IMG/VR virus record: IMGVR_UViG_3300025413_001239
From: a virus
Lineage: Duplodnaviria; Caudoviricetes
DNA length: 64,000 nucleotides
Reading direction: 5' to 3' (one strand)
Shown: positions 4,911-41,624 of the stretch, in pieces
Layout of the letters: the number at the start of each line of letters is the position of its first letter
Position numbering within the stretch: the stretch's first letter is position 1
Translations under genes and position numbers: made by a program
The notes under the pieces: generated by a model
The model's database searches: none
The model's input: the letters and a program-made list of their open reading frames with translations, nothing else
What the model was told of the DNA's origin: nothing

Positions 4911-5186
4911 AATTGTGATGTTTATATATAATAAATATCACGAGTTTTCTGAAAAATTCGTATTGTTACGAATTTTATTTTTAAAATGTTCGGTAAGTAA
5001 TGAATCAATTAGTTTAGATTTATTAAATTTACCCTCATCTAATTTTTTAAGAATTTCTTGGTCTAAGGCAATGCTAATTTTTTTTGGGTTATTTTTCATA
5101 AAAATAAATATAATAAATTATTTGTCTAAGTCAATTAATGTTCGTATATTTGCATCCTAATCAATATTTATATAAAAAAAAAAGAA

Positions 5187-5934: not shown

Positions 5935-6005
5935 GGTTCTATAGCTCAACGGCAGAGCTGGACTCTCTAAAAGTCTTGATGTTGGTTCGATTCCGACTAG
6001 AATCA
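5935..6005 (+). tRNA. Amber suppressor tRNA (anticodon CUA)
   Basis: Full cloverleaf: GGTTCTA/TAGAATC acceptor, GCTC/GAGC D stem, GGACT-CTCTAAA-AGTCT anticodon arm (CTA at 5967-5969), GTTGG-TTCGATT-CCGAC T arm, A73; own promoter at ~5900. Confidence 0.9.
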
Positions 6006-6053
6006 CACTTTACATTTTTTAACAATTATTGTATATTTATAAAAAAAAGAAAT

Positions 6054-7411: not shown

Positions 7412-7471
7412 ATTTGGTAGTGTTAAGTAAATACCATATATTTGCATTTTATTAAACATAAAATTATACGC

Positions 7472-9442
7472 ATGAAAAATTTACTTACATTGATTTGCTT
7501 ATTAGTAACATTTCAATTAATCGCACAAGACACAATTAAGTCAAAGACTCTAGAACCAATACAAATTACTTGTGTTAGGGCTGATAAGAAAATCCCAGTA
7601 ACACAAAAAACGCTCTCCGATTCGGCTATTCAAGCGAATTATCAGGGTCAAGAAATACCTATGTTGTTAGGTTCTCAAACATCAATTTACACGAATTGTG
7701 ATGGTGGTCATAACGCTGGTTATAGTTACTTTAGCATCAGGGGTATTGACCAAACAAGAATAAACATAACTCTTAATGGTGTTCCATTGAATGAAGGTGA
7801 AGACATGGCTTGTTATACGTCTAATTATCCAAGTTTTACCAGCGCAATTCAATCTATGCAAATTCAACGTGGTGTGGGTACATCATCTAACGGCGCATCA
7901 TCCTTCGGTGGCTCATTGAACTTTCAAAGCAAGGATGGCCTTATTAAGGGTACTGATATTCAAATAGGTGGTGGTTCATTTAATACATCAAGATTTGACA
8001 TATCCACATCCACAGGTTTATCCAAACACAAATTAGCCTTATTCGCTAATATTGGTGGTATACAAACTGATGGCTTTAGAGATAATTCAGGTTGTAAGGG
8101 TGGTTCCGCTTTTGTGAGTCTTGGTTACTTCGGGAAGTCTAGTATTACAAAACTTAACCTATTAACAGGAATATCACAAAACAAACAAGCTTGGATGGGT
8201 TCAAGTGATTCAGCATTAGCAGCTAATTATCGTGATAACCCAAGAGGTGGTGATAATATGGATAATTTCAATCAAACGAATGTTCAATTGCAGAACATAA
8301 CAATGTTTAATACACGGTTTAAATTAACCAGCACTGCGTTTTATAATTACTTAGATGGTCACTATAATGTGTTTAACTTAAAGGATATACCAGTTAATAA
8401 TTATTTTGCATACGAAAGCCAGTATTCACGATGGATTGGTGCGGTAACTCAATTAGATTATAACTATGGTGATTTTAAGGTTACTTCAAGCCTTTCAGCC
8501 AGTACTTATACGAGGTTCCATAATGGTTATGAGATTTACGATACAACACTTACTGAATATCCCTATACTAATAGTGGTAAAAAGAATGATGCAAATGCAT
8601 TCATAAAGTTTAGTTATGACACTAAAAGAGTCTTGTATTATATCGACTTACAAGAAAGATTTGTTGATTATAAGTACTCTGGTGATACAAGTGTTTATCA
8701 AAGCTGGAAGTTCTTTAACCCAAAGGCTGGTGTTAAGTTCTTCATAAACAAGAGTTTGGATGTGTATTGGAGCGTAGGTTTATCTCATAGAGAACCAACA
8801 CACTCAATAATGCTTAATGGTTGGTTGTACTTAAACTCTTATAATCCGATTACAATAGTTAAGCCTGAGGAAGTAATTGATAATGAAATAGGTGTAAATT
8901 ACACGTCAAGTAAACTAAAATTACAAGCTAATGTTTATGTAATGAAATTTACGAATGAAATGATAGCTGCTGGGCCGATGGGTAATAACAGTCTTCCTAT
9001 TATGATGAATGTTCCTAATAGTCTAAGATATGGCTTCGAATTTGATTGTACTTATAAAGTAAATAAGTCGTTTACTTATGATATTAATTCAACATTATCT
9101 AATGGTCAGTTTAAAGTTGATAGCGGTACGTATAGCTACTTATTTAATCCAAATTTTATGTTTAAGCATTCGATTAACTATACACATAATAAGTTATTTG
9201 TAAGCCTTAATCAAGCATATATTTCAAGAGTTTACATTGATAAGGCTAATCAATTTACTTTGCCAATATCATCTACAATCGGTTTGAATCTTGGATATAC
9301 CTTTGGTCGTTATCAAGTATCAATTCAGGGTAACAATTTAACAGGTGAGAAGACTTATAGCAATGGTTCAGTTACTGGTGTTAGGTATAGAATACCTAAC
9401 GCTTTACAAAATTACTTCATAACCCTTAAAATACACTTATGA
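7472..9442 (+). CDS. TonB-dependent outer-membrane receptor
   Basis: Signal peptide MKNLLTLICLL..; plug motifs FSIRG, RINITLNGVPLN, IQRGVGTSSNG..GGSLNF; beta-barrel body. Confidence 0.9.
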   Translation: MKNLLTLICLLVTFQLIAQDTIKSKTLEPIQITCVRADKKIPVTQKTLSDSAIQANYQGQEIPMLLGSQTSIYTNCDGGHNAGYSYFSIRGIDQTRINITLNGVPLNEGEDMACYTSNYPSFTSAIQSMQIQRGVGTSSNGASSFGGSLNFQSKDGLIKGTDIQIGGGSFNTSRFDISTSTGLSKHKLALFANIGGIQTDGFRDNSGCKGGSAFVSLGYFGKSSITKLNLLTGISQNKQAWMGSSDSALAANYRDNPRGGDNMDNFNQTNVQLQNITMFNTRFKLTSTAFYNYLDGHYNVFNLKDIPVNNYFAYESQYSRWIGAVTQLDYNYGDFKVTSSLSASTYTRFHNGYEIYDTTLTEYPYTNSGKKNDANAFIKFSYDTKRVLYYIDLQERFVDYKYSGDTSVYQSWKFFNPKAGVKFFINKSLDVYWSVGLSHREPTHSIMLNGWLYLNSYNPITIVKPEEVIDNEIGVNYTSSKLKLQANVYVMKFTNEMIAAGPMGNNSLPIMMNVPNSLRYGFEFDCTYKVNKSFTYDINSTLSNGQFKVDSGTYSYLFNPNFMFKHSINYTHNKLFVSLNQAYISRVYIDKANQFTLPISSTIGLNLGYTFGRYQVSIQGNNLTGEKTYSNGSVTGVRYRIPNALQNYFITLKIHL

Positions 9443-9981
9443 TAGAGTTTATTGGTGCTTTATTCACGCTTTTATCAGCATATTATACTGTAAAAGAAAA
9501 GGTCATTTGTTGGCCGTTAGCGATAGCATCAACGATTATCTACATATATTTACTATATATTGAGAAATTGTATGGTCAGGTATTTGTCGATATATTAACG
9601 TTATTTCAATGCGCTTACGGTTGGTATTATTGGGATAAAACTGATAATAAGCAGCCTGAAAGACTTAAACCCATTAAGTTTGTTAGAGATATATTTCTTT
9701 TAGTTCTAATATCTAGTATTACAATATACTACATAAGAACATATACTAATAATCCACAACCAGTATCGGATATTACGTCAACATACTTAGCACTTTTAGC
9801 TAATTGGTATTTAGCTAAGAAGTTTATTGATGGGTTTTATGTTTGGGTTATAGCCGATATAATACTAGCGTATATGTTTTATTATCAACATATGTATTGG
9901 TCAATGGGTTTATTTATTATTTTAATAGGGTTCGCCCTTCAAGGTCAATTCGCATGGCAAAAGAGTTTAAAAACGGACTAG
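9439..9981 (+). CDS. pnuC: PnuC-family nicotinamide riboside/vitamin transporter
   Basis: TM pattern; WPLAI, LYGQ, YGWYYW, W-x-LAKKFIDGFYVWVIAD motifs. Confidence 0.9.
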   Translation: MIEFIGALFTLLSAYYTVKEKVICWPLAIASTIIYIYLLYIEKLYGQVFVDILTLFQCAYGWYYWDKTDNKQPERLKPIKFVRDIFLLVLISSITIYYIRTYTNNPQPVSDITSTYLALLANWYLAKKFIDGFYVWVIADIILAYMFYYQHMYWSMGLFIILIGFALQGQFAWQKSLKTD

Positions 9982-10955
9982 TACTTGGGAAATGTTTTCC
10001 ATTTCACTTAGGACATAAATATCTTATTGATTCAGCAATTAAGCAATGTGATACGGTTCACGTTATGGTTTGTTCACTTAAACGTGAAAATATAGCTGGT
10101 GAATTACGTTATGAATGGGTTAAAGAAACATATATGAATAACCCTAGTGTGAATGTTATTCATTGTGATGATGAAAATCCTCAACATCCACCAGAATGTG
10201 CTAGTGTTGATGAATTTTATAATAAGTATTGGGTACCGACTGTATACAAGCATGTTAAGGAACTGGATGTTGTATTTACTTCTGAGGATTACGGTGATGA
10301 ATTTGCCAGTTACTTAGGTGTTAAGCATGTGCTTGTTGATAAAGCTAGAACAGCTTATCCTGTATCTGGAACTTCGGTTAGAGAGAATCCTTATGCAAAT
10401 TGGGATTTAATACCTGATAATGTTAAAAAATACTTTATTAAAAAGATTGTTATTTTAGGTCCTGAATCTGTTGGTAAATCAACGATGGTTAAAAAGTTGG
10501 CTGAGCATTTGGGTTGTAAGTATATCGATGAGTTCGGTAGGACTTATACTGAATTAACTGGAACTGATAATCTTCAAATATTTGATTTTGAAGCGATAGC
10601 TCATTGGCATAATCATCATATTGAAAAGGCTGAAATTGATAAGTACTTAATAATTGATACAGAAGCGATTACAACTAAGATATTTGCTGAAATGTACTTA
10701 GGTAAACGTGAAAGTGAATCTAAATTCATAGATGAAATCATAAGTGAGCAACATTTCGATTTATACTTAGTGCTAAACGTTGATGTTCCTTGGGTTGATG
10801 ATGGTACAAGAGACTTTCCAGAGGGTCGTGAAGAGCATCTAAACACTATTATCTCTAATTTAGAGGAAAGAGGTTTAGAATACAAGCTTATTAGCGGTGA
10901 TAATTACGATGAAAGATTTGAAAAAGCCTTAGAAGAAGTTAAAAAGTTGGGATGA
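9954..10955 (+). CDS. nadR: NadR-like NMN adenylyltransferase / ribosylnicotinamide kinase (no HTH)
   Basis: GKCFPFHLGH nucleotidyltransferase motif, VSGTSVR, P-loop GPESVGKST, PWVDDGTR; likely start 9954. Confidence 0.9.
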   Translation: MAKEFKNGLVLGKCFPFHLGHKYLIDSAIKQCDTVHVMVCSLKRENIAGELRYEWVKETYMNNPSVNVIHCDDENPQHPPECASVDEFYNKYWVPTVYKHVKELDVVFTSEDYGDEFASYLGVKHVLVDKARTAYPVSGTSVRENPYANWDLIPDNVKKYFIKKIVILGPESVGKSTMVKKLAEHLGCKYIDEFGRTYTELTGTDNLQIFDFEAIAHWHNHHIEKAEIDKYLIIDTEAITTKIFAEMYLGKRESESKFIDEIISEQHFDLYLVLNVDVPWVDDGTRDFPEGREEHLNTIISNLEERGLEYKLISGDNYDERFEKALEEVKKLG

Positions 10956-10958
10956 CAT

Positions 10959-12194
10959 TTAAATAACAATTAAATCGTTATTTATTTGATTACGGACATT
11001 ATTGTTCATAATCACACTAGTGTAATCCAGTGGCTTTGTCATTGAAGCAAGGTGATTGTCGTAATATCTTTTCATTATGTTGATAGCTGAGTTTAAATCT
11101 CTATCTATTTCGACATTATCACTTAGTTTAACAGTTCTATCCTTTAACTCAACTTTATCTTTAAATAGCTTACCAGTAAGACTATTCAATTGAGTGGTGT
11201 ATTTTTCATCAATCTTAATTAAATCACATTGTTTATTTTGTGACTTATACTTAAGAAATTCTAAGAACATATTAATATTAGATTCATTAAATGATTTTCT
11301 AATACCCTTTTTATTCTTATTTACTCCTTCTGTTGACATAAGGGTTTTTACTGTTAAATCGCCAACTACAATTGTTTTGTAGTTCATATTCACTAATTTT
11401 TTACTCTGAATATGTAGAGTTTGTTTAATTTGACTATTCTTCTTATTATATAGTTTTCTTTTAACTTTATTTAATTTATTAAAGGATTTACTATTCTTTT
11501 GTTTTTTGCTTAACTTAGACTTAATCTTATTAATCTGTTTACCGAAGTACTGATTAATCCTCTTTGATTTATTTTTAAGAATAACAACGGTACCATTGTT
11601 ATCCACACCAGTACCTAAATTCTTTAGACCTAAATCAATAGCGAGTACTCTTGATTTAATTATTAAATCATCTGAGTAGTTTATTTTATCATCGACAACA
11701 ATATCACAAAGCCACTTATTATTAATAAATTTGACTCTAATTTCTTTAATATTTAATTCAGATAAGTTTGTTAAATGACTTGAATATTTAAAATTAATTT
11801 TATTTATTGAAATTATACTATTTTCTTTGAATATCCAACCATTTAGGTTAAAAACTAATGTATGATACTTTCCGAGTTCTTTTGTCTTTGGTGGTCTAGC
11901 TGTATTATCTTTTTTAATAAGTGTGAAGAAAGATTGGTATGATTGAAATATTTCAGCTGCCACAACTTGTGCTGCTTTTGCATTAAATTGTTTCCAAGAT
12001 TCCTTGGTTGAATATTTCAATGGTGGAATGAGGTTAATTAAATCAAACTTTGAGTATACCTTTTTAGTTGATTCATAGTGTTTTTGCTGAATATCAATAA
12101 GAGTGTTCCAAATATCCATACGAATATCAGACAACTGTTTTAGTTGAGATACCTGTTCTGTTGTTGGGTGTAACCTTATTGAGTATGTTTTCAT
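10959..12194 (-). CDS. tnpB: Solo TnpB-family RNA-guided nuclease with rearranged RuvC-II and no Zn finger
   Basis: YSIRLHPTTEQ N-terminus, AIDLGLK, VVGDL (G at canonical E), IDEKYTTQ, DRDLNSAINI. Confidence 0.85.
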   Translation of the reverse strand: MKTYSIRLHPTTEQVSQLKQLSDIRMDIWNTLIDIQQKHYESTKKVYSKFDLINLIPPLKYSTKESWKQFNAKAAQVVAAEIFQSYQSFFTLIKKDNTARPPKTKELGKYHTLVFNLNGWIFKENSIISINKINFKYSSHLTNLSELNIKEIRVKFINNKWLCDIVVDDKINYSDDLIIKSRVLAIDLGLKNLGTGVDNNGTVVILKNKSKRINQYFGKQINKIKSKLSKKQKNSKSFNKLNKVKRKLYNKKNSQIKQTLHIQSKKLVNMNYKTIVVGDLTVKTLMSTEGVNKNKKGIRKSFNESNINMFLEFLKYKSQNKQCDLIKIDEKYTTQLNSLTGKLFKDKVELKDRTVKLSDNVEIDRDLNSAINIMKRYYDNHLASMTKPLDYTSVIMNNNVRNQINNDLIVI

Positions 12195-13260: not shown

Positions 13261-14124
13261 ATGCGAACATTTTGGAAGACTGAAGAAGTTGAATTATTAA
13301 AAGAATTGTATGAAAATCAAGGTTTGTCGATAAGTGAATTGTATCCGATTTTTAGTTTGAGATTTAATAGAACTTTAGATAGTGTTAAAGTTAAAATGGG
13401 TAAACTTAAACTAAAACATACTAAAGAACAAATAGCTAAATTAAAATCAAGGTTGAATTCTGGTGAATTAAATGGGATGTACAATAAAACATCTGCAATG
13501 AAGGGGTTAACTAAAGAAAATTCTGAAATTGTTAGATTAAAATCAGAAAAAACGTCTAAAACTAGAATAGAAATGTATAAAAAAGGATTATTACCAGATG
13601 TATCTGGGGAAAATAATCCAATGTTCGGGGCAACTCCTTGGTCGAAAGGTAAAACAAAATTTAATGATATTAGATTATATAATATTGGGATTAAAAGTTC
13701 AATTAGTAAAAAAGAATTGTGGTTAAAGAAAACTAATGAGGAAAAAGAAATCATAATAAGAAGATTAAATGATGCTATGATTCAAGTTAGGAAACCAACT
13801 AAAATTGAATTAAAAATGGTCGATTATTTAAGTAAATTAGATATTGAATTTATTAAAAATTTTAGAATAAAGAATTTTTTAGTTGATTTTTATTTACCTA
13901 ATAATAATTTAGTTATTGAATGTGACGGTGATTATTGGCATGCAAATCCATTAATTTATGAAGGAAAAGAGTTAGATAAGATTCAACTAAAAAATCGTAA
14001 CAGAGATAGAAAAAAGGAAGAAATGTTAATAAAATCCAACATTAATCTTGTTCGTTTTTGGGAATTTGATATTAAAAATCATTTTGAAAGTGTTGAACAG
14101 AAATTATTAACAATGTTAAAATAA
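13261..14124 (+). CDS. Homing endonuclease, NUMOD3-like repeats plus Vsr/DUF559-type nuclease
   Basis: GELNGMY, GENNPMFG repeats; VDFYLP..VIECDGDYWH..RFWE. Confidence 0.8.
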   Translation: MRTFWKTEEVELLKELYENQGLSISELYPIFSLRFNRTLDSVKVKMGKLKLKHTKEQIAKLKSRLNSGELNGMYNKTSAMKGLTKENSEIVRLKSEKTSKTRIEMYKKGLLPDVSGENNPMFGATPWSKGKTKFNDIRLYNIGIKSSISKKELWLKKTNEEKEIIIRRLNDAMIQVRKPTKIELKMVDYLSKLDIEFIKNFRIKNFLVDFYLPNNNLVIECDGDYWHANPLIYEGKELDKIQLKNRNRDRKKEEMLIKSNINLVRFWEFDIKNHFESVEQKLLTMLK

Positions 14125-14128
14125 ATAT

Positions 14129-15271
14129 ATGATAGATAAAATTGGTATTAGATATACGTTTAAGATTTCGGTACCACTAGATGTTTTAAAGATAAAAGAA
14201 GTTTTTACTAAGAATGGTCATCAACTATTTCTAGTTGGTGGTTGTATTCGTGATACCATATTAAATGTAACACCTAAAGATTTTGATTTAGTTACAAATG
14301 TTTCGCCAGAAGAGGTTATTAGAATTTTAAAGCATGAAAAGTTTGTTACAACAATATTAGAAACTGGAAAATCATTTGGTGTTATTAATGTTATAACTAG
14401 CGATAATGAATTTGAAATTGCTACGATGCGCAATGATGTGTTTAGTGATACACCAAATGGGAGGCATCCAGACCGTGTTATCTTTGGTGATATTTTTACT
14501 GATTGTATGCGAAGGGATTATACCATGAATGCGCTTTTTTATGACTTAGATACTAATGAAATAATTGACTTCGTTAATGGTGTTAATGATATTGAAAAAT
14601 CTTTAATTAAGGCGGTTGGGAATCCAGAAGAAAGATTTAAAGAAGATAAATTACGCAAACTTAGGGGCGTTAGGCTGGCGGCCAGATTTGGCTCTGAATT
14701 GGACCCTGAGATTGATGCCGCATTAAAAAGAGATGCCAGTCTGGAAGGTATATCTGGTGAAAGAATCAGAGATGAGTTTATAAAGGGTATCAAATCAGCT
14801 AAGTCAGTTGTTAAATTCTTGGAAATGCTTGATAGGTATCATTTATTTAATTGGATATTTAAGGGCTTACATGTAAATAAAGACTTTATTGAGGATAGAA
14901 ATGTTGTAGTTCTTATTGCTATTTTATTAAAGGGTAACAACATAGGTGTTATAGCTAAGCAATTGAACAATCTTAAGTATTCTGTTGATGAGATTAAATC
15001 AATCACATTCTTATTGAGTTTATTGCATTTAACACCTGAGACAGCAGTTGCTTTAAAGAGACAACAAAAGAACGCTTACACATCAAATCATCAAATAATT
15101 GATTTTGCTAACCGTGAAGGTTTAAATACAAGATTGATACATGCGTTTTTAAATTTTGAGTTGACCGTTACTGGCGAAGAAGTTATGCAAAAGTTCAATT
15201 TGAAGCAAGGCAAAGAGTTAGGTGATATGATAAATAAATTGGAATTGGATAATTTTAAAAAAAGTTTGTAA
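14129..15271 (+). CDS. cca: CCA-adding tRNA nucleotidyltransferase / poly(A) polymerase family
   Basis: LVGGCIRD, KDFDLVT, RRDYTMNAL, EDKLRKLRGVR, ERIRDE; tRNA genes in the window lack encoded CCA. Confidence 0.9.
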   Translation: MIDKIGIRYTFKISVPLDVLKIKEVFTKNGHQLFLVGGCIRDTILNVTPKDFDLVTNVSPEEVIRILKHEKFVTTILETGKSFGVINVITSDNEFEIATMRNDVFSDTPNGRHPDRVIFGDIFTDCMRRDYTMNALFYDLDTNEIIDFVNGVNDIEKSLIKAVGNPEERFKEDKLRKLRGVRLAARFGSELDPEIDAALKRDASLEGISGERIRDEFIKGIKSAKSVVKFLEMLDRYHLFNWIFKGLHVNKDFIEDRNVVVLIAILLKGNNIGVIAKQLNNLKYSVDEIKSITFLLSLLHLTPETAVALKRQQKNAYTSNHQIIDFANREGLNTRLIHAFLNFELTVTGEEVMQKFNLKQGKELGDMINKLELDNFKKSL

Positions 15272-17206: not shown

Positions 17207-17275
17207 AAAACTTTAAAAAAGATTTGTCTAATTCAAAATAACCACGTATATTTGCACTTCAAATAGCTAATAAAG

Positions 17276-18568
17276 ATGAAGTGTATTAAAACAAGGAAAA
17301 TTCAGTTGTTGCCATTAGGTGATTTTAATGAAACCTACAAATACGTTAATAATTTAAGTTCAGGCTTAGCGTCACTCGGTAATGAAATGATAAGGAGACA
17401 TGTTTTATCATTTTATGAAATGGACGTACTAAAAGATTCAACTCCAGATGCTAAAACTAGAACTAATCTAATGAAGGAAAAATACGGAATGTCACTCCAA
17501 AATATGGGTTATGATGTTTCAAAAAAGTATTCAGCCACAATTCCTTCGAATATTCGCACAACATTTAATCAAAAGGTCTTTAAAAAAATAAAAGACAGTT
17601 ATTTTGGTATTTCAATAAATAAAGAATCTATACCATCATTCAGAAAAGACTCAATGGCAATTCCATTTAGTTATGATAATAATATCAGTTTGAACGAATT
17701 TGGGGTGTATGATTTTAAATTCTTTAATAATGTCAATTTTAAATTAAACTTTGGACGTGATAGGTCTAATAATAAAGTTATCATTGACAGAATTTTATCT
17801 AATGAATATAAGCCATTATCTTCACATATAAAAATTGATAAGAAAAAAATATTCTTAGATTTAACATATTCTTTTGACTCAGATGAAAATGTTAACATAT
17901 CTAAAGATAAAATTGTTGGTGTTGATTTAGGTATAAATAGACCTATGACAATTGCTAGGGAAGATGGTACTTATGCAAAACAAATAGAAATCGGTGGTAA
18001 GATTCAATACTCTAGATTATCAATTCAAAAACAAAGAAGAAGCTTACAAAGTGCTTTAAGGCATTCATCTGGTGGTCATGGTACTGGTAAAAAAATAGCT
18101 AAATTAAAATCATTAAAAGATTATGAACATAATTTCATGAAAACCACTAATGATACACTAAGTCGTGAATTAATAAAATATTGCGTTAATGAAGGTGTTG
18201 GTGTAATTAAATTAGAAAATCTAACTGGTATAACAGAAAATGCTAATAATTTTCTTAAGTCTTGGTCTTATTATCAATTACAACAAATGATTGAGTATAA
18301 AGCTGCTGAATTTGGAATTACAGTATTATATGTTAATCCTAGATATACCTCTCAAACTTGTCCAACTTGTGGCAATATTGATAAAACTCAAAGAGATTCA
18401 AAGGATAAAACAAAATTTGCTTGTTCAAATGAAATTTGTTCTGATATTAATATAAATAAAGATGCTGATATTATTGGTGCCTTTAATATCTCAAAAAGAG
18501 ATGGTGTTATCGCTTCTAAAAAAATATTACAAGAAAAAAGTGATAAAAAGTTGTTAGTTTCAGAATAA
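17276..18568 (+). CDS. Compact type V CRISPR effector (Cas12f/TnpB-like, 430 aa)
   Basis: RuvC triad GVDLG, IKLENL, KDADIIGAFNI; Zn finger CPTC..CSNEIC; KTRKIQL N-terminus; immediately upstream of anti-repeat and CRISPR array. Confidence 0.85.
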   Translation: MKCIKTRKIQLLPLGDFNETYKYVNNLSSGLASLGNEMIRRHVLSFYEMDVLKDSTPDAKTRTNLMKEKYGMSLQNMGYDVSKKYSATIPSNIRTTFNQKVFKKIKDSYFGISINKESIPSFRKDSMAIPFSYDNNISLNEFGVYDFKFFNNVNFKLNFGRDRSNNKVIIDRILSNEYKPLSSHIKIDKKKIFLDLTYSFDSDENVNISKDKIVGVDLGINRPMTIAREDGTYAKQIEIGGKIQYSRLSIQKQRRSLQSALRHSSGGHGTGKKIAKLKSLKDYEHNFMKTTNDTLSRELIKYCVNEGVGVIKLENLTGITENANNFLKSWSYYQLQQMIEYKAAEFGITVLYVNPRYTSQTCPTCGNIDKTQRDSKDKTKFACSNEICSDININKDADIIGAFNISKRDGVIASKKILQEKSDKKLLVSE

Positions 18569-18589
18569 GTTCGTATATTTGCATAAATA

Positions 18590-18751
18590 AAAAAAGTTCT
18601 TTTACATATTGAGCCTAACGGCTGGGCTGGTTGTTCAGCCTTAAGGTGAATCCACGAATAAACGTGGTGATACTCTAGAGTATTGGAGGAAACTCACTCA
18701 CCAAATACCTTTAAATATAGGGTTTATAATGTCGTTAATGGTATAAACAAT
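18590..18751 (+). ncRNA. Putative tracrRNA
   Basis: Own promoter TATATTTG 18574-18581; hairpins GGCTG-GTTGTT-CAGCC and CCACG-AATAAA-CGTGG; anti-repeat ATACCTTTAAATATAGGGT 18705-18723. Confidence 0.75.
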
Positions 18752-18769
18752 TAAGAAATGCGCTATTCA

Positions 18770-19398
18770 GGTGTTAATGACCCTAATTTGAAAGGTATAA
18801 ACAACTAACGCTTGCAATGCAGTTCAGGTAGTGTTGGTGTTAATGACCCTAATTTGAAAGGTATAAACAACAGTATTATATAATTGTTGTTGCATTTGAT
18901 GGTGTTAATGACCCTAATTTGAAAGGTATAAACAACAGAGGTGTTCTAGCTTGACTTCACTAATATGGTGTTAATGACCCTAATTTGAAAGGTATAAACA
19001 ACGGACTGGCATCGTTAATGGTTGCTGGTCACGGTGTTAATGACCCTAATTTGAAAGGTATAAACAACAAAACTTTAATAGACCACTCTTAGGGTCTAGG
19101 TGTTAATAACCCTAATTTGAAAGGTATAAACAACCATAATATTATTTTTAATTCACCGCAATGTGGTGTTAATGACCCTAATTTGAAAGGTATAAACAAC
19201 GGGTTGAGTTAACTGGTCTGTTATTGTCATGGTGTTAATGACCCTAATTTGAAAGGTATAAACAACGAAACTGAACGTTTACTAAAAGACAAAGAAGGTG
19301 TTAATGACCCTAATTTGAAAGGTATAAACAACGAGACTGAACATTTACTAAAAGACAAGGAAGGTGTTAATGACCCTAATTTGAAAGGTATAAACAAC
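18770..19398 (+). CRISPR. CRISPR array, 10 repeats of 36 nt, 9 spacers of 29-30 nt
   Basis: Repeat GGTGTTAATGACCCTAATTTGAAAGGTATAAACAAC at 18770, 18836, 18901, 18967, 19033, 19099 (one G>A), 19165, 19231, 19297, 19363. Confidence 0.98.
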
Positions 19399-19712: not shown

Positions 19713-19783
19713 CGAGGTGTAGTTTAGTGGTAAAATGCCGCACTGTCTATGCGGTGTCACGATTTCGATTATCGTCATCTCGG
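19713..19783 (+). tRNA. tRNA-Asp(GUC)
   Basis: CGAGGTG/CATCTCG acceptor, CCGCA-CTGTCTA-TGCGG, ACGAT-TTCGATT-ATCGT, G73. Confidence 0.85.
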
Positions 19784-19785
19784 CA

Positions 19786-19870
19786 CGGAAAAAATTCCTA
19801 GGGATAGGAACTATCTTGATAAAGATAAGTACTGCACGAATCATAATAAGTTCGAATCTTAATTTTCCGC
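19786..19870 (+). pseudogene. Degenerate tRNA-like element (6-nt loop TGATAA, long variable region)
   Basis: CGGAAAA/TTTTCCG, TTCC/GGAA D stem, TATCT/AGATA stem, TAAG-TTCGAAT-CTTA T arm. Confidence 0.5.
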
Positions 19871-19910
19871 AACGGAGAATCACAACTCTAAAAAAAATGT
19901 GAAACTGGAG

Positions 19911-19983
19911 GGGGGGTCATGTACCAAGGCTGGCGAGAAATACTTGCAATATTTCTGGAAGATTTCAATTATCTTACTCTCCA
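19911..19983 (+). tRNA. tRNA-Ala(UGC), atypical D arm
   Basis: Loop CT-TGC-AA in AAATA/TATTT stem; G3.U70 and A73 alanine identity elements; AAGAT-TTCAATT-ATCTT T arm. Confidence 0.7.
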
Positions 19984-20046
19984 CAGGTGTCACTGATATA
20001 CTGACCGAGCATGGGGATTAGTAATAATCCCTAGTATATCTAATAA

Positions 20047-20121
20047 GGTGCCGTAGCTGAGATGGTTTAGCGGTTGGTTGAAGCCCAGCGACTTACAAGG
20101 GTTCGATTCCCTTCGGTACCA
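20047..20121 (+). tRNA. tRNA-Phe(GAA)
   Basis: GGTGCCG/CGGTACC, GTTGG-TTGAAGC-CCAGC, AAGGG-TTCGATT-CCCTT. Confidence 0.85.
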
Positions 20122-20178
20122 GATAGTCAATGTTAATCCACCTGCACGTTGGTGATTATCGCACACTAGGAATAGTGA

Positions 20179-20583
20179 CTAAGTGATTAACAAAGTTCTT
20201 TGATTTATGATATTAGCAATAATATCAAGAAATTTTTTAGATGTATTTATTTTGAATTTTTGTTGAAATGATGTATCAATAATACATAAATCAATTTTAT
20301 TTTCAATACATGATTTAAATTTATTCTGGTCATTTATTTGTGTCTGGTTTAATTTATTAATACCGAAAATCGGTTCATAATGAAATATTCCATTCAATTC
20401 AAATGCTAAATTAAGTGACGGAATGTAGATGTCTAATTCAGAACCGATTGCATCCTTCTTATTATAGTCTATTTGTAGATTAGGGTAAAGAATTGTTAAT
20501 TGTTCTTCAAGATATATTTCGAGTTTAGAGCGTCTTGTGCCAGTTGTTTTATGTTTATTATAATTGTGAGTAAATTGAATAAA
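20179..20583 (-). pseudogene. N-terminally truncated PD-(D/E)xK (Vsr-like) homing endonuclease
   Basis: RSKLE..ELDIYIPSLNLAFELNGIFHY; no ATG between tRNA-Glu and the conserved part. Confidence 0.6.
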
Positions 20584-20586
20584 AAT

Positions 20587-20672
20587 GCTATGGTCGACTA
20601 GTGGCTCAGGTCGCATCCCTTTCAAGGATGTGGGGAGAAATCCCCTCACGGGTTCGAATCCCGTCCATAGTA
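20587..20672 (+). tRNA. tRNA-Glu(UUC) with long variable arm
   Basis: GCTATGG/CCATAGT, CATCC-CTTTCAA-GGATG, extra GGGGA-GAAA-TCCCC stem, ACGGG-TTCGAAT-CCCGT. Confidence 0.85.
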
Positions 20673-20994
20673 CAAATGTTTTAGTTATGATTAAGCGAAC
20701 AATTAGTGGTAGTTTTACTAATATGGTAAAACCTGACCCAAGTGTTATGAAAGATAGTGATTTTGATTTGTTATCGTTCTGATAGAACACTGGTTGTATT
20801 CACAATATGTAAGAGCGCATATACCAATTGCTGCTTTATGGGACAGAAAAGTTGAGGGGAAAGTTCGATTCTTTCGAAGGACACATTATTAACAAGTTAA
20901 AAAAAATGAGCGCAATGAAACAGCTGGACGCAATGTCACCAATCAGATAAGAGAAGAAAGAAAGGTTCTGATTGGTACGAGACAAACACGAAAA

Positions 20995-27581: not shown

Positions 27582-28109
27582 TTAAGCAATAAACTTAAAT
27601 GAATTAACACGATTTAGCCATCCCTTAAGGAATTTACCTTGTGCTGGGTGGTGTGCAACGATGTCATTATAATACTTGGTCCTAGATGCTTTGATTTTAT
27701 CAAATAATTCGCTTTGATTAGCCTTATTGATAGCTTCAACACTTTTAGGTCCAAATACACCATCAGCAGTTATACCAAGGCATTGTTGCGTTTTGATAGC
27801 AGCAGTACCCACACCACAGTTATAAGCAAAATCTACAATCATTTCTGTAATTGATTGGTTAGTAATTGAATCCCCACGAAGTCTATCCCAGTAATGTGCC
27901 TTAGCGATGCTCATAGCATCTTCAGCTGTAATAAGTTTAAGGTCATCAACATCAATGTCACCATCACCGTCTTTATCATAACCCTTAGCTTTCCATTCGG
28001 AAAGAATCACACCATACTTAGTCTCTTTTCCATTGTCGCCAGGTACACATTCGAATGAACTTCCCTCAAATTGTACTAATTTAGGAAAATATTTTTTAAA
28101 ATCACTCAT
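27582..28109 (-). CDS. Endolysin, glycosyl hydrolase 108 with peptidoglycan-binding tail
   Basis: EG..D.G..TKYG, DFAYNCG, ADGVFGPKS, FLKGWLNR. Confidence 0.9.
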   Translation of the reverse strand: MSDFKKYFPKLVQFEGSSFECVPGDNGKETKYGVILSEWKAKGYDKDGDGDIDVDDLKLITAEDAMSIAKAHYWDRLRGDSITNQSITEMIVDFAYNCGVGTAAIKTQQCLGITADGVFGPKSVEAINKANQSELFDKIKASRTKYYNDIVAHHPAQGKFLKGWLNRVNSFKFIA

Positions 28110-29196
28110 TTTCTATATATTTAAATTTTTTATTATAAACACTATTTCTTTCACCTTTACATACCTTACAAATACTAGCTTCTTTTAAATTTAAGATATT
28201 AGCCGCATCCCTTATTGTATTAAATATCTGAATTATATTATTTTCATCATCTATTAATGCAATTTTTTTTCTTTTTGGTATTTTTGGTTTAGCACGTTCT
28301 TTATTGGCCCAATATTTATCCCTACCAATTTTTAATTTTTCAAGAGTTTCCTCTGTTTTTGGAACACCTTTATGTTTCTTACTAAGATTTTTAAGATGTT
28401 CTTTTCTTTTTTCAGTCATGATATATTCTTTTTTTATTTTAACTGGTTTTTCTTTTTTTAATCTGTAACCCTTGACAACATAATGAATTTCATTATTTAA
28501 ATTTTTTAAATTTAAATAATCGTCTTTACTAATATATTTCCAATCATAACCCATACCATTTATAGATTGCTTAGATAAATAACGTGTTATCGCACTTTCA
28601 CTAATATTTGTAAGTTTAATTGCCTCAGAAATTGATTGAAAAACATATATAACTCTATCATCTTTAAGTTGTGCAATACATCTACTAGTTGTATTATCTA
28701 TACCTTTAGGTGTGATTTTACCCTTGTTAGATAAACTAATTTTTAACTTTGTTTCTTGACTTAATATTCTACCCTTAGCTGATGGTGGTTTAAATCCAGA
28801 TTTTTTATGAGCTTCACTAATTTTTCGTTTAGCTTCTTCAGTATGTTTATACCCCTTATTCGCAACACTAATTTTTAATTTTATTTCATTGGTCAATTTA
28901 CTAGATTTTCCACCCTCTAAAATATTTAACATTTTATAACCTAAATCCTTATAGTGTTTGATATAATATATCTCGTATTCGTCAAATATACTCTGTTCAA
29001 TATTTAAGGGTAATTCTAGTATTATTTCAAAATTATGTGCATCAAACCCATATTTTTTAATTGAATTATATATTGCTGGTTGTTTTATTGTTTGTAATCT
29101 CCTGTAATTTGATTTTCTTTTAACAAGATTTCTAGTTTGTCCAATGTAAATTTTATTACTTGGCGATGTTATTTTGTAAATATAAGCTTTATTCAT
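28102..29196 (-). CDS. GIY-YIG homing endonuclease with NUMOD3/NUMOD1 repeats
   Basis: YIYKITSPSNKIYIGQT, HTEEAKRKIS, F.SISEA; likely start 29196. Confidence 0.9.
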   Translation of the reverse strand: MNKAYIYKITSPSNKIYIGQTRNLVKRKSNYRRLQTIKQPAIYNSIKKYGFDAHNFEIILELPLNIEQSIFDEYEIYYIKHYKDLGYKMLNILEGGKSSKLTNEIKLKISVANKGYKHTEEAKRKISEAHKKSGFKPPSAKGRILSQETKLKISLSNKGKITPKGIDNTTSRCIAQLKDDRVIYVFQSISEAIKLTNISESAITRYLSKQSINGMGYDWKYISKDDYLNLKNLNNEIHYVVKGYRLKKEKPVKIKKEYIMTEKRKEHLKNLSKKHKGVPKTEETLEKLKIGRDKYWANKERAKPKIPKRKKIALIDDENNIIQIFNTIRDAANILNLKEASICKVCKGERNSVYNKKFKYIENE

Positions 29197-29346
29197 AATG
29201 TTCTTTATTATAAATATCATAAGATTATATAATGTACAGTCAAAAAATAAAATCTATATAAATATTTTTTAAAAATTGCCATTTTAGTTGGTTCTAGGGT
29301 TGTTCTAAATTTTAATTAAATTATTAATTATTGGTAAATGTTTTAT

Positions 29347-40257: not shown

Positions 40258-41624
40258 TGTTCATTAAAACTTAAAAAATATTAGTAAAAATTAGATAAAA
40301 ATAAATGCGTGTATTTTTGTCTTTTTCATTTTTTCAATATATTTATTATTAAGGGTGTAAATACATCCATCGTTAAATTATGTTAAGAGCAATTAAAATA
40401 AGACTTTACCCAAATAAAACTCAACAAAGTTATATTAATAACTTGATGGGTTGTTATCGTAAAGTATATAATCTATCTCTTAATTATAAGATAAACGAAT
40501 ATAACTTAAATGGTGAAAACGCTAATATGAAAAGTATTGGTAATCAATTTCATAATAATTGGACAAAATCAGATGATTACCAATACCTAAATAATCATAA
40601 CACAAAAGTTTTGAAACAAGCAATTATTAATATGCTTGATTCGTATAAAAGATTTTTTGTTAATGGTAATGGTTATCCTAAATTTAAATCAAAACATGAT
40701 AATAAACAATCATGCAGATTTCCATCAGAAGCAATATCTAAACGTAACGATTATTCATCATATAAACTAACACTTATATCACAATTAAAAGATATTAAAT
40801 TTAGTTGTTCTGAAGAATATTCAAAATACTTAAACAAGCATAAAGATAATATTAGGTCTGCAACATTAACCAAAAATAAATCAGGTGAGTATTATTTAAG
40901 TATCTTAATTGATGGAGATTTATTAAAATCATTAAACACACCAAGTAATCAATTTATTGGTATTGATTTAGGTATAAAGGATTTTATTATAACGTCTAAT
41001 GGGGAAAGATTTGAAAATATTAAGATAAAAAGGGGTAATGAAAAAAAGTTAGCTAGACTACATCGTAAGTTATCTAAAAAACAAAAAGGAAGCAAGAATA
41101 AAGAAAAAGCGAGAATTAAGTTAGCTAAATTTAATCATAAACTAACTAATATTAAAGAAGAATATTTACATAAGATAAGTAATCAATTATTAAACGAAAA
41201 TCAAGTTATTGTAATTGAGGACTTAAATGTGAAGGGTATGATGAAAAATCATAATTTAGCAAAATCAATACAAGAATTAAGTCTTTACAATTTTAAGAGT
41301 AAATTATTGTATAAGAGTAATTGGTATAATAGAACAATAATTGAGATAGATAGATTTTATCCTAGTTCAAAGTTATGTTCATCTTGTGGGTATAAGAATA
41401 TTGATTTAGAACTGAGTGATAGGGAATGGACTTGTCCATCATGTAAAACAAAGCATGATAGAGATTTTAATGCTTCTATTAATATTCTAAATGAGGGGGT
41501 AAGGTTATATAATAATATAATACCCATCCGTTGTGGGGAATTAACGCCTTTGGAGAGTAGTCAACAGACACTCAATGAATTAGGAAATCGGGATTTGCAT
41601 AATATTGTGTAAGTTTCGTTGAAC
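40258..41624 (+). mobile_element. Non-autonomous IS605/IS1341-type element carrying only tnpB
   Basis: TGAAC immediately before the left end and at the right end; excision restores ATG AAC GGT ACT.. ORF coupled to the upstream gene. Confidence 0.65.
40380..41612 (+). CDS. tnpB: TnpB RNA-guided endonuclease (canonical)
   Basis: AIKIRLYPN HTH, GIDLGIKD, VIEDLNVKGM, FYPSSKLCSSCG..CPSC, DRDFNASINI. Confidence 0.95.
   Translation: MLRAIKIRLYPNKTQQSYINNLMGCYRKVYNLSLNYKINEYNLNGENANMKSIGNQFHNNWTKSDDYQYLNNHNTKVLKQAIINMLDSYKRFFVNGNGYPKFKSKHDNKQSCRFPSEAISKRNDYSSYKLTLISQLKDIKFSCSEEYSKYLNKHKDNIRSATLTKNKSGEYYLSILIDGDLLKSLNTPSNQFIGIDLGIKDFIITSNGERFENIKIKRGNEKKLARLHRKLSKKQKGSKNKEKARIKLAKFNHKLTNIKEEYLHKISNQLLNENQVIVIEDLNVKGMMKNHNLAKSIQELSLYNFKSKLLYKSNWYNRTIIEIDRFYPSSKLCSSCGYKNIDLELSDREWTCPSCKTKHDRDFNASINILNEGVRLYNNIIPIRCGELTPLESSQQTLNELGNRDLHNIV

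Follow-up and report, generated by a model that had tools for sequence, protein, structure and literature searches.

A compact CRISPR nuclease in a viral genome raises two questions: is the system a genuine and working one, and what would the phage aim it at? Both arise for a 64,000-nucleotide (nt) stretch of DNA from IMG/VR virus record IMGVR_UViG_3300025413_001239 (Duplodnaviria; Caudoviricetes), hereafter called the window. Positions 17276-19398 on its plus strand hold a CRISPR-Cas12f locus, in which a cas12f gene is followed by a scaffold similar to trans-activating CRISPR RNAs (tracrRNAs) and then by a CRISPR array. An initial annotation, made from the letters alone, had described a phage-encoded miniature type V CRISPR system with a 430-amino-acid (aa) Cas12f-like effector, a tracrRNA and a nine-spacer array, and all of these parts are present. 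We put at roughly 85% the probability that the locus is a genuine type V-F1 (Cas12f1, former V-U3) CRISPR-Cas system on a ~340-kb phage of freshwater Bacteroidota, including a tracrRNA/array transcript, a Cas12f dimer, cutting of double-stranded DNA (dsDNA) and targeting of a Fic gene. Judged from its sequence, the system is real and probably functional.

The Cas12f effector

The cas12f gene (17276..18568, + strand) encodes a 430-aa type V-F1 effector, which matches the Pfam families OrfB_IS605 and Cas12f1-like TNB and, with 172 bits, NCBIfam guided_TnpB. Two PADLOC profiles, Cas12f PDLC01699 (E 1.6e-89) and Cas12u3 (E 6.7e-89), matched it over the full length. The protein was aligned with 33 homologues, giving 34 sequences at 38-83% identity. 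The RuvC residues D217, E314 and D398 and the four cysteines of the CCCC zinc finger (C362, C365, C383 and C388) are invariant in this alignment, showing that the D-E-D triad and the zinc finger are intact, as the initial annotation had stated. Residues 6, 7 and 9 are nearly invariant across the homologues, indicating that the protein starts at ATG 17276 and that the public 420-aa gene call begins too late.

Among solved structures, Al3Cas12f (9NZO/9NZR) was the best sequence match (E 1e-51), with ~122 identities in 316 aligned positions (~39%, residues 75-390, counted by eye) and 27-28% identity over the structural alignment. AsCas12f (8J12, 7WJU, 8DZJ) matched with E 5e-42 over residues 162-396 only. 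Matches were also obtained to SpCas12f1 (E 1.5e-37), CnCas12f1 (E 4e-36), OsCas12f (E 2e-35), RhCas12f (E 3e-30), dCas12f (E 2e-25), Un1Cas12f/Cas14a (E 3e-18) and ISDra2 TnpB (E 2e-3). An AlphaFold2 model was built from the 34-sequence alignment (mean predicted local distance difference test score, pLDDT, 85) and compared by Foldseek. The template modeling (TM) score of the predicted fold was highest with AsCas12f (0.78-0.80), followed by Al3Cas12f (0.74), CnCas12f1 (0.72) and Un1Cas12f (0.66); TnpB gave 0.53-0.55, and Cas12p and CasLambda gave at most 0.56.

Sequence and modeled fold both place the protein in the former V-U3 group as a Cas12f1, and the proposed check with hidden Markov models against the Cas12f, V-U and TnpB clades gave the same assignment. 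It shows the features by which we recognized V-F1 effectors, namely a length in the range of ~400-550 aa, a WED/REC/RuvC/TNB architecture, the D-E-D triad and a CCCC zinc finger. The idea of a possibly undescribed Cas12f-like lineage had to be given up, with Cas12f and Cas12u3 profiles matching the full length at E ~1e-89 and Al3Cas12f and AsCas12f matching as given above. A near-identical characterised effector, which would have removed any novelty, did not turn up: the closest, Al3Cas12f, is about 39% identical, so the protein is new as an ortholog only. We place it as a new member of the known Cas12f1 group, not as a new lineage.

Several other families were tried and rejected. Cas12f2 (Cas14b; NCBIfam NF049972) scored 85.9 bits against a cut-off of 450, and IS200_TnpB (NF038281) 42 bits against 425. 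Cas12j (CasPhi), Cas12l (CasLambda) and Cas12p (hacker) were compared as phage-borne effectors of 500-800 aa, CasPhi and CasLambda being without a tracrRNA and Cas12p having one; their matches had E values of 1e-3 or weaker or were absent, TM scores were 0.43-0.56, and the size did not fit. The Cas12p family (500-700 aa) and Cas-delta (867-936 aa) were ruled out by size plus sequence or fold scores. The nuclease-dead dCas12f, whether associated with sigma-E or with CRISPR, was rejected on the intact triad and the full-length protein.

Could the effector nevertheless bind without cutting and, guided by RNA, repress host genes, among them the Fic gene discussed below? We hold this to be very unlikely, since D217, E314, D398 and the zinc finger are not only intact but invariant across the clade, the protein is full length against Cas12f profiles, and the target of spacer 8 lies within a coding region, not at a promoter. 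Precedents do exist: such a role was proposed for a phage 'dCas14', a Cas14 that lacks a catalytic residue and has a host-gene spacer (PMC7162821), and was shown for dCas12f relatives, which are found in Bacteroidota (PMC13472631); in addition, one Bacteroidia genome (G094) contains a truncated homologue. We continue with the reading of a cutting V-F1 effector.

The window contains two further TnpB-like open reading frames (ORFs), at 10959-12194 (- strand, 411 aa) and 40380-41612 (+ strand, 410 aa), which match the PHROG 506 'transposase' with E 2e-59 and E 8e-112, respectively. The first shares only 25% identity with the Cas12f across 218 residues, and in this pairwise alignment it lacks the zinc-finger cysteines as well as a Glu opposite E314.

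The array and its guide RNA

The CRISPR array (18770..19398, + strand), found by tandem-repeat and repeat searches, consists of ten copies of the 36-nt repeat GGTGTTAATGACCCTAATTTGAAAGGTATAAACAAC and nine spacers, with a period of 66. Nine of the ten repeats are identical and the remaining one differs by one G-to-A change; no spacer occurs twice, and all are 30 nt long except one of 29 nt. The description of a near-perfect 36/30 array was thus accurate. The array starts 201 nt 3' of cas12f, and the gap (18569-18769) is the structured region to which an anti-repeat had been assigned. This element was located at 18705-18734 (+ strand); it is 30 nt long and pairs with nearly the whole first repeat.

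The anti-repeat ends a tracrRNA-like scaffold of ~140 nt (18590..18734, + strand; 5' end approximate), which was defined by fold and covariation. Region 18596-18805 folds with -56 kcal/mol (z -3.17), and 0 of 200 shuffles were as good. The minimum-energy fold contains a small stem (stem 1, 18612-15/18620-23), a hairpin (18624-29/18636-41) with the loop GTTGTT (18630-35), a long-range helix GGTGA:TCACC (18645-49/18698-702) around three hairpins, including those at 18652-56/18663-67 and 18669-74/18679-84, and the anti-repeat:repeat duplex, all on the plus strand.

Covariation was analyzed in 14 homologous scaffolds from 12 loci. RNAalifold predicted 12 pairs, 10 of them with compensatory changes. 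In a three-helix structure, 98.6% of the cells were paired and 11 of the 16 pairs changed on both sides, a result that 0 of 500 shuffles reached; when the partners were slid out of register, pairing fell to 42% or less. The long-range helix GGTGA:TCACC is replaced by CCTGA:TCAGG or TCTGA:TCAGA in other scaffolds. The hairpin loop changes in step with the final six bases of its cognate repeat (GTTGTT:AACAAC, GTTGTA:TACAAC, GTTGTG:CACAAC), and we take this loop-to-repeat pairing to be the pseudoknot known from Cas12f and TnpB guide RNAs. Fold and covariation together reveal what is expected of a V-F1 tracrRNA: a predicted long RNA, placed after cas12f and before the array, that contains an anti-repeat and forms a pseudoknot with the 3' end of the repeat. 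Among relatives with 42-83% protein identity, compensatory changes preserve the helices, indicating purifying selection.

A promoter-like site for a tracrRNA/array transcript (18551..18583, + strand) overlaps the cas12f stop and contains a perfect TTCGTATATTTGCA at 18570-18583; its position is kept in the relatives L003, L004 and L013. Another promoter-like site (17224..17256, + strand; TTGTCT-17-TATATT) lies upstream of cas12f, with the phage-wide motif CACGTATATTTGCA at 17243-17256. The 14-nt motif TTYGTATATTTGCA has 33 copies in the window against 4.05 expected (~8-fold), 31 of them on the plus strand (for example at 5141, 15295, 18570, 19469, 29461 and 36300). The TAnnTTTG inside it is the Bacteroidota -7 promoter element, and TTYGTATATTTGCA is probably the main promoter type of the phage, recognized by a sigma factor of the Bacteroidota kind. 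That the array is transcribed in the same direction as cas12f is suggested by the anti-repeat, the promoter and the conservation of the repeat 3' end.

The array is headed by an unusual unit. An 18-nt truncated repeat (18734..18751, + strand) joins repeat positions ~4-10 to positions 26-35, ends with AACAAT and lacks the segment that pairs with the anti-repeat; it is separated from the first full repeat by an 18-nt 'spacer 0' (18752..18769, + strand). Comparable truncated-repeat units stand 3' of the anti-repeat in L003, L004, L006, L009, L012, L013 and L128, with 'spacers 0' of 24-30 nt in L003, L004, L006, L012 and L013; the relatives L126 and L127 are without such a unit. In L009, and likewise in the unit that lies downstream in L128, the scaffold and the ORF 3' end overlap; the scaffold passes via a short hairpin onto the repeat 3' end, which is followed by a single guide and no array there. 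By analogy with TnpB, TranC and dCas12f, the truncated repeat and 'spacer 0' may form working natural single guides, or they may be remnants.

Other arrangements were observed among the relatives. The scaffold overlaps the cas12f 3' end in L009 (4340-4470), L012 (4336-4470) and L128 (5342-5470), with the array elsewhere in the locus; this is the layout typical of TnpB omega-RNAs, though the nuclease is of the Cas12f1 type. Two tracrRNA-like scaffolds flank cas12f in L128 (3363-3560 and 5342-5490) and L129 (3570-3940 and 5364-5940), each with a mini-array or a single guide. Upstream of cas12f in L130 (3560-3960), an array degenerates into ~14-nt units that retain only the repeat 3' end (GTTACATACAAC-like), with spacers of 25-30 nt.

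These layouts bear on whether the locus is instead a TnpB/IS605-type mobile element with an omega-RNA, its repeats being incidental. Pfam and the Joint Genome Institute (JGI) label the protein as an IS605 OrfB transposase, the window has the two other TnpB-like ORFs, and the scaffold that overlaps the ORF 3' end in L009, L012 and L128 carries one fixed guide. A mobile element would, however, explain neither a regular 36/30 array with unique spacers nor an anti-repeat complementary to the repeat. The fold is nearer to Cas12f1 (TM 0.74-0.80) than to TnpB, the locus is syntenic in related phages, and no TnpA was called next to cas12f, although element ends were not looked for. We consider this explanation extremely unlikely and retain that of a CRISPR-Cas12f system.

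A phage-borne family and its targets

The identical Cas12f protein is encoded on a 339,484-bp JGI metagenome contig and on a 50.7-kb contig of a second sample. Its 83%-identity relative (L003) lies on a syntenic contig of a related phage, and a VirSorter contig carries a 59%-identity relative whose neighbours are a prohead protease and a T4-type Gp23 capsid gene. Eight relatives at 42-51% identity are on IMG/VR viral contigs of 29-310 kb, and further ones on contigs of 130-340 kb packed with small unannotated ORFs. We infer, with good support, that the contig is that of a huge phage. A search of 401 sampled Bacteroidia species genomes with the family profile gave one match at E <= 1e-30, which was C-terminally truncated. 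With a homologue in only 1 of 401 Bacteroidia genomes and relatives on phage-like contigs, the family is essentially phage-borne. The sole Bacteroidia homologue (L135, G094:C3:314411-315484) is a 372-aa ORF that covers profile positions 2-351 and lacks the C-terminal RuvC/zinc-finger part, and it thus resembles the nuclease-dead dCas12f group.

No Cas1, Cas2 or Cas4 domains are on record within -10 kb/+5.5 kb of the locus on the public contig copies or beside seven related loci. The statement that cas1, cas2 and cas4 are missing from the window therefore holds near the locus; for the window as a whole it is provisional, the rest having been sampled only and cas2-sized ORFs partly scanned. That adaptation-less compact type V systems are established in huge phages agrees with the literature, in which V-F variants without Cas1, Cas2 and Cas4 are reported (PMC7162821).

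Spacers 8 (19267-19296) and 9 (19333-19362; both + strand) are variants of one protospacer in a Bacteroidota gene for a winged helix-turn-helix (wHTH)-Fic protein (codons ETER/HLLKDKE). They differ at 3 of 30 positions, two of these differences being synonymous (not significant), and read in frame as ETERLLKDKE and ETEHLLKDKE. A wobble-degenerate pattern of the two spacers matched in two metagenome contigs, and a slightly looser pattern matched in 74 genomes of species representatives, of which 72 are Bacteroidota according to their record titles. The frame was read in eight matching loci: the site was within a ~350-aa ORF in all eight, and six of the ORFs were typed as Fic-domain proteins (Pfam Fic). 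The bases flanking the site are conserved in nearly all genome matches.

The best spacer 8 matches (28/30) were found in a freshwater Bacteroidetes metagenome-assembled genome (MAG), another Bacteroidota MAG and Ferruginibacter, with all mismatches at third codon positions. Their 5' flanks (ATTA, GTTG and ATTG) have 5'-TTR in common, in weak agreement with the T-rich protospacer-adjacent motifs (PAMs) of the Cas12f group. When the complete array was searched by BLAST against these genomes, nothing but this spacer was recovered. The His variant of spacer 9 was absent from all Bacteroidota matches; the two spacers may have been acquired independently or have arisen by duplication and drift. The narrow spacer 8/9 pattern had no match in IMG/VR, and no spacer matched elsewhere in the window at up to 7 mismatches. 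Two other hits were judged to be chance, a recurrent 29-nt match in a conserved gene that spans spacer 2 and the next repeat and a 22-nt exact match to spacer 2 in one genome (G124). The spacer search proposed by the initial annotation thus yielded a Bacteroidota target for spacers 8 and 9, no convincing match for the other seven and a weak indication of the PAM.

The wHTH-Fic gene is single-copy and patchily distributed, being present in 35 of the 401 sampled Bacteroidia genomes (~9%). Its neighbours were of the defence or toxin type in four of five inspected genomes (HipA toxin kinase, reverse transcriptase in two genomes, Abi_alpha with a DNA methylase). The PADLOC profile SoFic matched it partially (E 8e-20, positions 53-218 of 361 only). 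SoFic is an abortive-infection AMPylase (PMC12249575; bioRxiv 10.1101/2022.05.11.491447), and the wHTH-Fic protein is at most a candidate member of that system. The match of spacers 8 and 9 to an accessory Bacteroidota Fic gene suggests that the most likely use of the system during infection is to cut the chromosome of the host or a mobile element residing in it.

How could an array without adaptation genes gain such spacers? When the array was searched against the 401 Bacteroidia genomes, a similar repeat turned up in two arrays of one genome (G156). A 1144-aa ORF next to one of them encodes a Cas13b (NF038190, 821 bits), and the window repeat is identical to the repeat of that array at 28 of 36 positions when read in the cas13b gene orientation; repeats of related phage Cas12f arrays are identical to it at 22-30 of 36. 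G156 has no Cas12f homologue. Its Cas13b locus is L124 3798-7538, and the second similar array is on a different contig (L113/L125 272-710). Type VI-B arrays of Flavobacterium columnare that lack Cas1/Cas2 gain spacers via type II-C machinery, and the VI-B and II-C repeats have a common GTTGT end (PMC8092290). Many arrays of this Cas12f phage family start with GTTGT or GGTGT. Given the trans-acquisition in F. columnare and the common GTTGT-type repeat ends, spacer acquisition in trans by host machinery is plausible by analogy, and the likeness to the Cas13b repeat points to a testable way in which phage arrays that lack adaptation genes could acquire spacers.

The same likeness could mean cross-talk with a host type VI-B system, with host Cas13b using the phage guides or phage Cas12f using host arrays. 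The shared orientation with respect to cas13b fits this. The repeat is, however, fully explained by pairing with the phage's own tracrRNA, and neither Cas13b nor Cas12f nor similar repeats were found in the five genomes that have the best protospacers. Moreover, spacer 8 reads in the same sense as the Fic mRNA, and a Cas13b guide derived from it would therefore be unable to pair with this transcript. The odds of such cross-talk appear very slim to us.

A bolder version of the V-F1 reading can be drawn from these elements. The Cas12f would be an anti-defence weapon aimed at a host wHTH-Fic of the abortive-infection type, its array of VI-B/II-C-kind repeats would be filled in trans by host Cas1-Cas2, and the truncated repeat with 'spacer 0' would be a working single-guide RNA left from an omega-RNA stage. 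We regard this combination as speculative and rather unlikely.

For the V-F1 system itself, we infer the following course of transcription, processing, dimer formation, PAM use, cleavage and benefit to the phage. The Bacteroidota-type promoter over the cas12f stop would probably drive one transcript, with the ~140-nt tracrRNA scaffold first and the array next. The 30-nt anti-repeat would pair with almost the whole repeat, and the repeat-end AACAAC with the loop GTTGTT as a pseudoknot. A host RNase would probably trim the tracrRNA:repeat duplex. If AsCas12f and Al3Cas12f are a guide, a pair of Cas12f subunits would bind one tracrRNA:CRISPR RNA (crRNA) complex and cut dsDNA beside a T-rich 5' PAM. 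Spacers 8 and 9, at least, would direct the complex to a conserved site of the accessory wHTH-Fic gene, which usually lies beside toxin-antitoxin or defence-type genes.

Several observations weigh against this reading. The 64-kb window contains no structural gene, and the contig's phage status is deduced from its size, its gene content and its relatives. The best protospacers are the 28/30 matches in species representatives, a perfect one not having been encountered, and the TTR flank is also a leucine codon, which makes the PAM inference weak. None of the nine spacers gave a convincing match to INPHARED phages; of the seven besides spacers 8 and 9, exact 24-nt seeds of spacers 1, 3, 4, 5 and 7 (not 2 and 6) had no match in IMG/VR, and in the whole-array search of the 401 Bacteroidia genomes only spacer 8 was credible. 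Finally, both metagenome samples that carry this locus have the same nine spacers; thus, there is no sign of ongoing spacer turnover.

The identical arrays, the lack of exact targets and the truncated repeat at the array head would also suit a decaying relic, a captured Cas12f locus no longer in use by the phage. A relic would not be expected to combine an intact ORF with all catalytic residues, nine identical repeats out of ten, a perfect promoter copy and tracrRNA helices maintained by compensatory change among its relatives. Decay therefore seems most improbable to us, and we keep to a functional V-F1 system.

The surrounding genes include homing endonucleases, many PHROG families of unassigned function, tRNAs and a TonB-receptor/PnuC/NadR operon. 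Near the CRISPR locus are two homing-endonuclease-like ORFs (HNH/GIY-YIG PHROGs) and a gene of the CCA-adding/poly(A)-polymerase family (13261-14124, 28102-29220 and 14129-15271). A tRNA cluster (Asp, Phe, Glu; 19713-20673) directly follows the array behind a perfect copy of the promoter motif, its tRNA-Glu being 87 nt long, and an amber-suppressor-type tRNA (anticodon CTA) lies at 5935-6006. The operon at 7442-10955 encodes a TonB-dependent receptor (Plug), a PnuC-type nicotinamide riboside transporter and a NadR-like ATPase, and is conserved in L003.

Comparison with known systems

Al3Cas12f (Cas12f-MG119-28), a metagenomic enzyme assigned to Alistipes, is an obligate dimer, and the MG119 family has T-rich PAMs and guide RNAs of 129-156 nt (PMC13186708). 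It shares with the window system a Bacteroidota origin and the use of a tracrRNA and a crRNA, and is its best sequence match among solved structures. In contrast, its deposited chains have 506-508 residues compared to 430 aa, and the window protein is phage-borne, with PAM and activity only predicted.

The native loci of SpCas12f1 and AsCas12f1 have tracrRNAs of 153-169 nt, a 2:1 protein:RNA complex and a T-rich PAM (PMC8548392). Their order of cas12f, tracrRNA and array is that of the window locus, and the RNA sizes match. AsCas12f1 (Acidibacillus sulfuroxidans, 422 aa) is also of the same size class and the best fold match; both systems have a long tracrRNA with an anti-repeat, and no adaptation genes were seen. 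However, SpCas12f1 and AsCas12f1 come from Firmicutes chromosomes and not from a Bacteroidota phage, and the repeat and scaffold sequences are unrelated in detail. As a 430-aa Cas12f1 from a mesophilic setting with a guide-RNA structure set by covariation, the window protein is a reasonable candidate for tool screening.

The dCas12f that acts with sigma-E represents a Bacteroidota branch that uses one guide joined to the scaffold (Hoffmann et al. 2026, PMC13472631; PDB 9N9C/9N9M). It belongs to the same Cas12f group (E 1.6e-25, TM 0.61-0.64), and its fused guide recalls the units in some relatives of the window locus. Unlike the window nuclease, which is intact and has an array and a tracrRNA, it is C-terminally truncated, nuclease-dead, without arrays and located beside rpoE.

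TnpB with its omega-RNA and TranC (Jin et al. 2025, cited in PMC13565253) have a similar RuvC/TNB core and guide-RNA pseudoknot, and the truncated repeat with its fixed 'spacer 0' resembles an unsplit omega-RNA. They differ in fold (TM 0.48-0.55), and the window locus has a true array and a separate anti-repeat and shows no transposon features.

A similar setting is that of the huge-phage type V-F systems of Al-Shayeb et al. 2020, in which compact effectors with conserved catalytic residues lie by small arrays without Cas1, Cas2 or Cas4 and some spacers target host genes (PMC7162821). The exact lineage of the window locus may already be among those in their trees; tracrRNA covariation and a Fic target were worked out only here. 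To the thin record of phage CRISPR targets, the locus adds a documented case in which two of nine guides point at a conserved accessory Bacteroidota Fic gene among toxin-antitoxin and defence genes. Its additions are thus a covariation-backed guide-RNA structure, evidence for a phage-borne clade and a concrete target family for two spacers.

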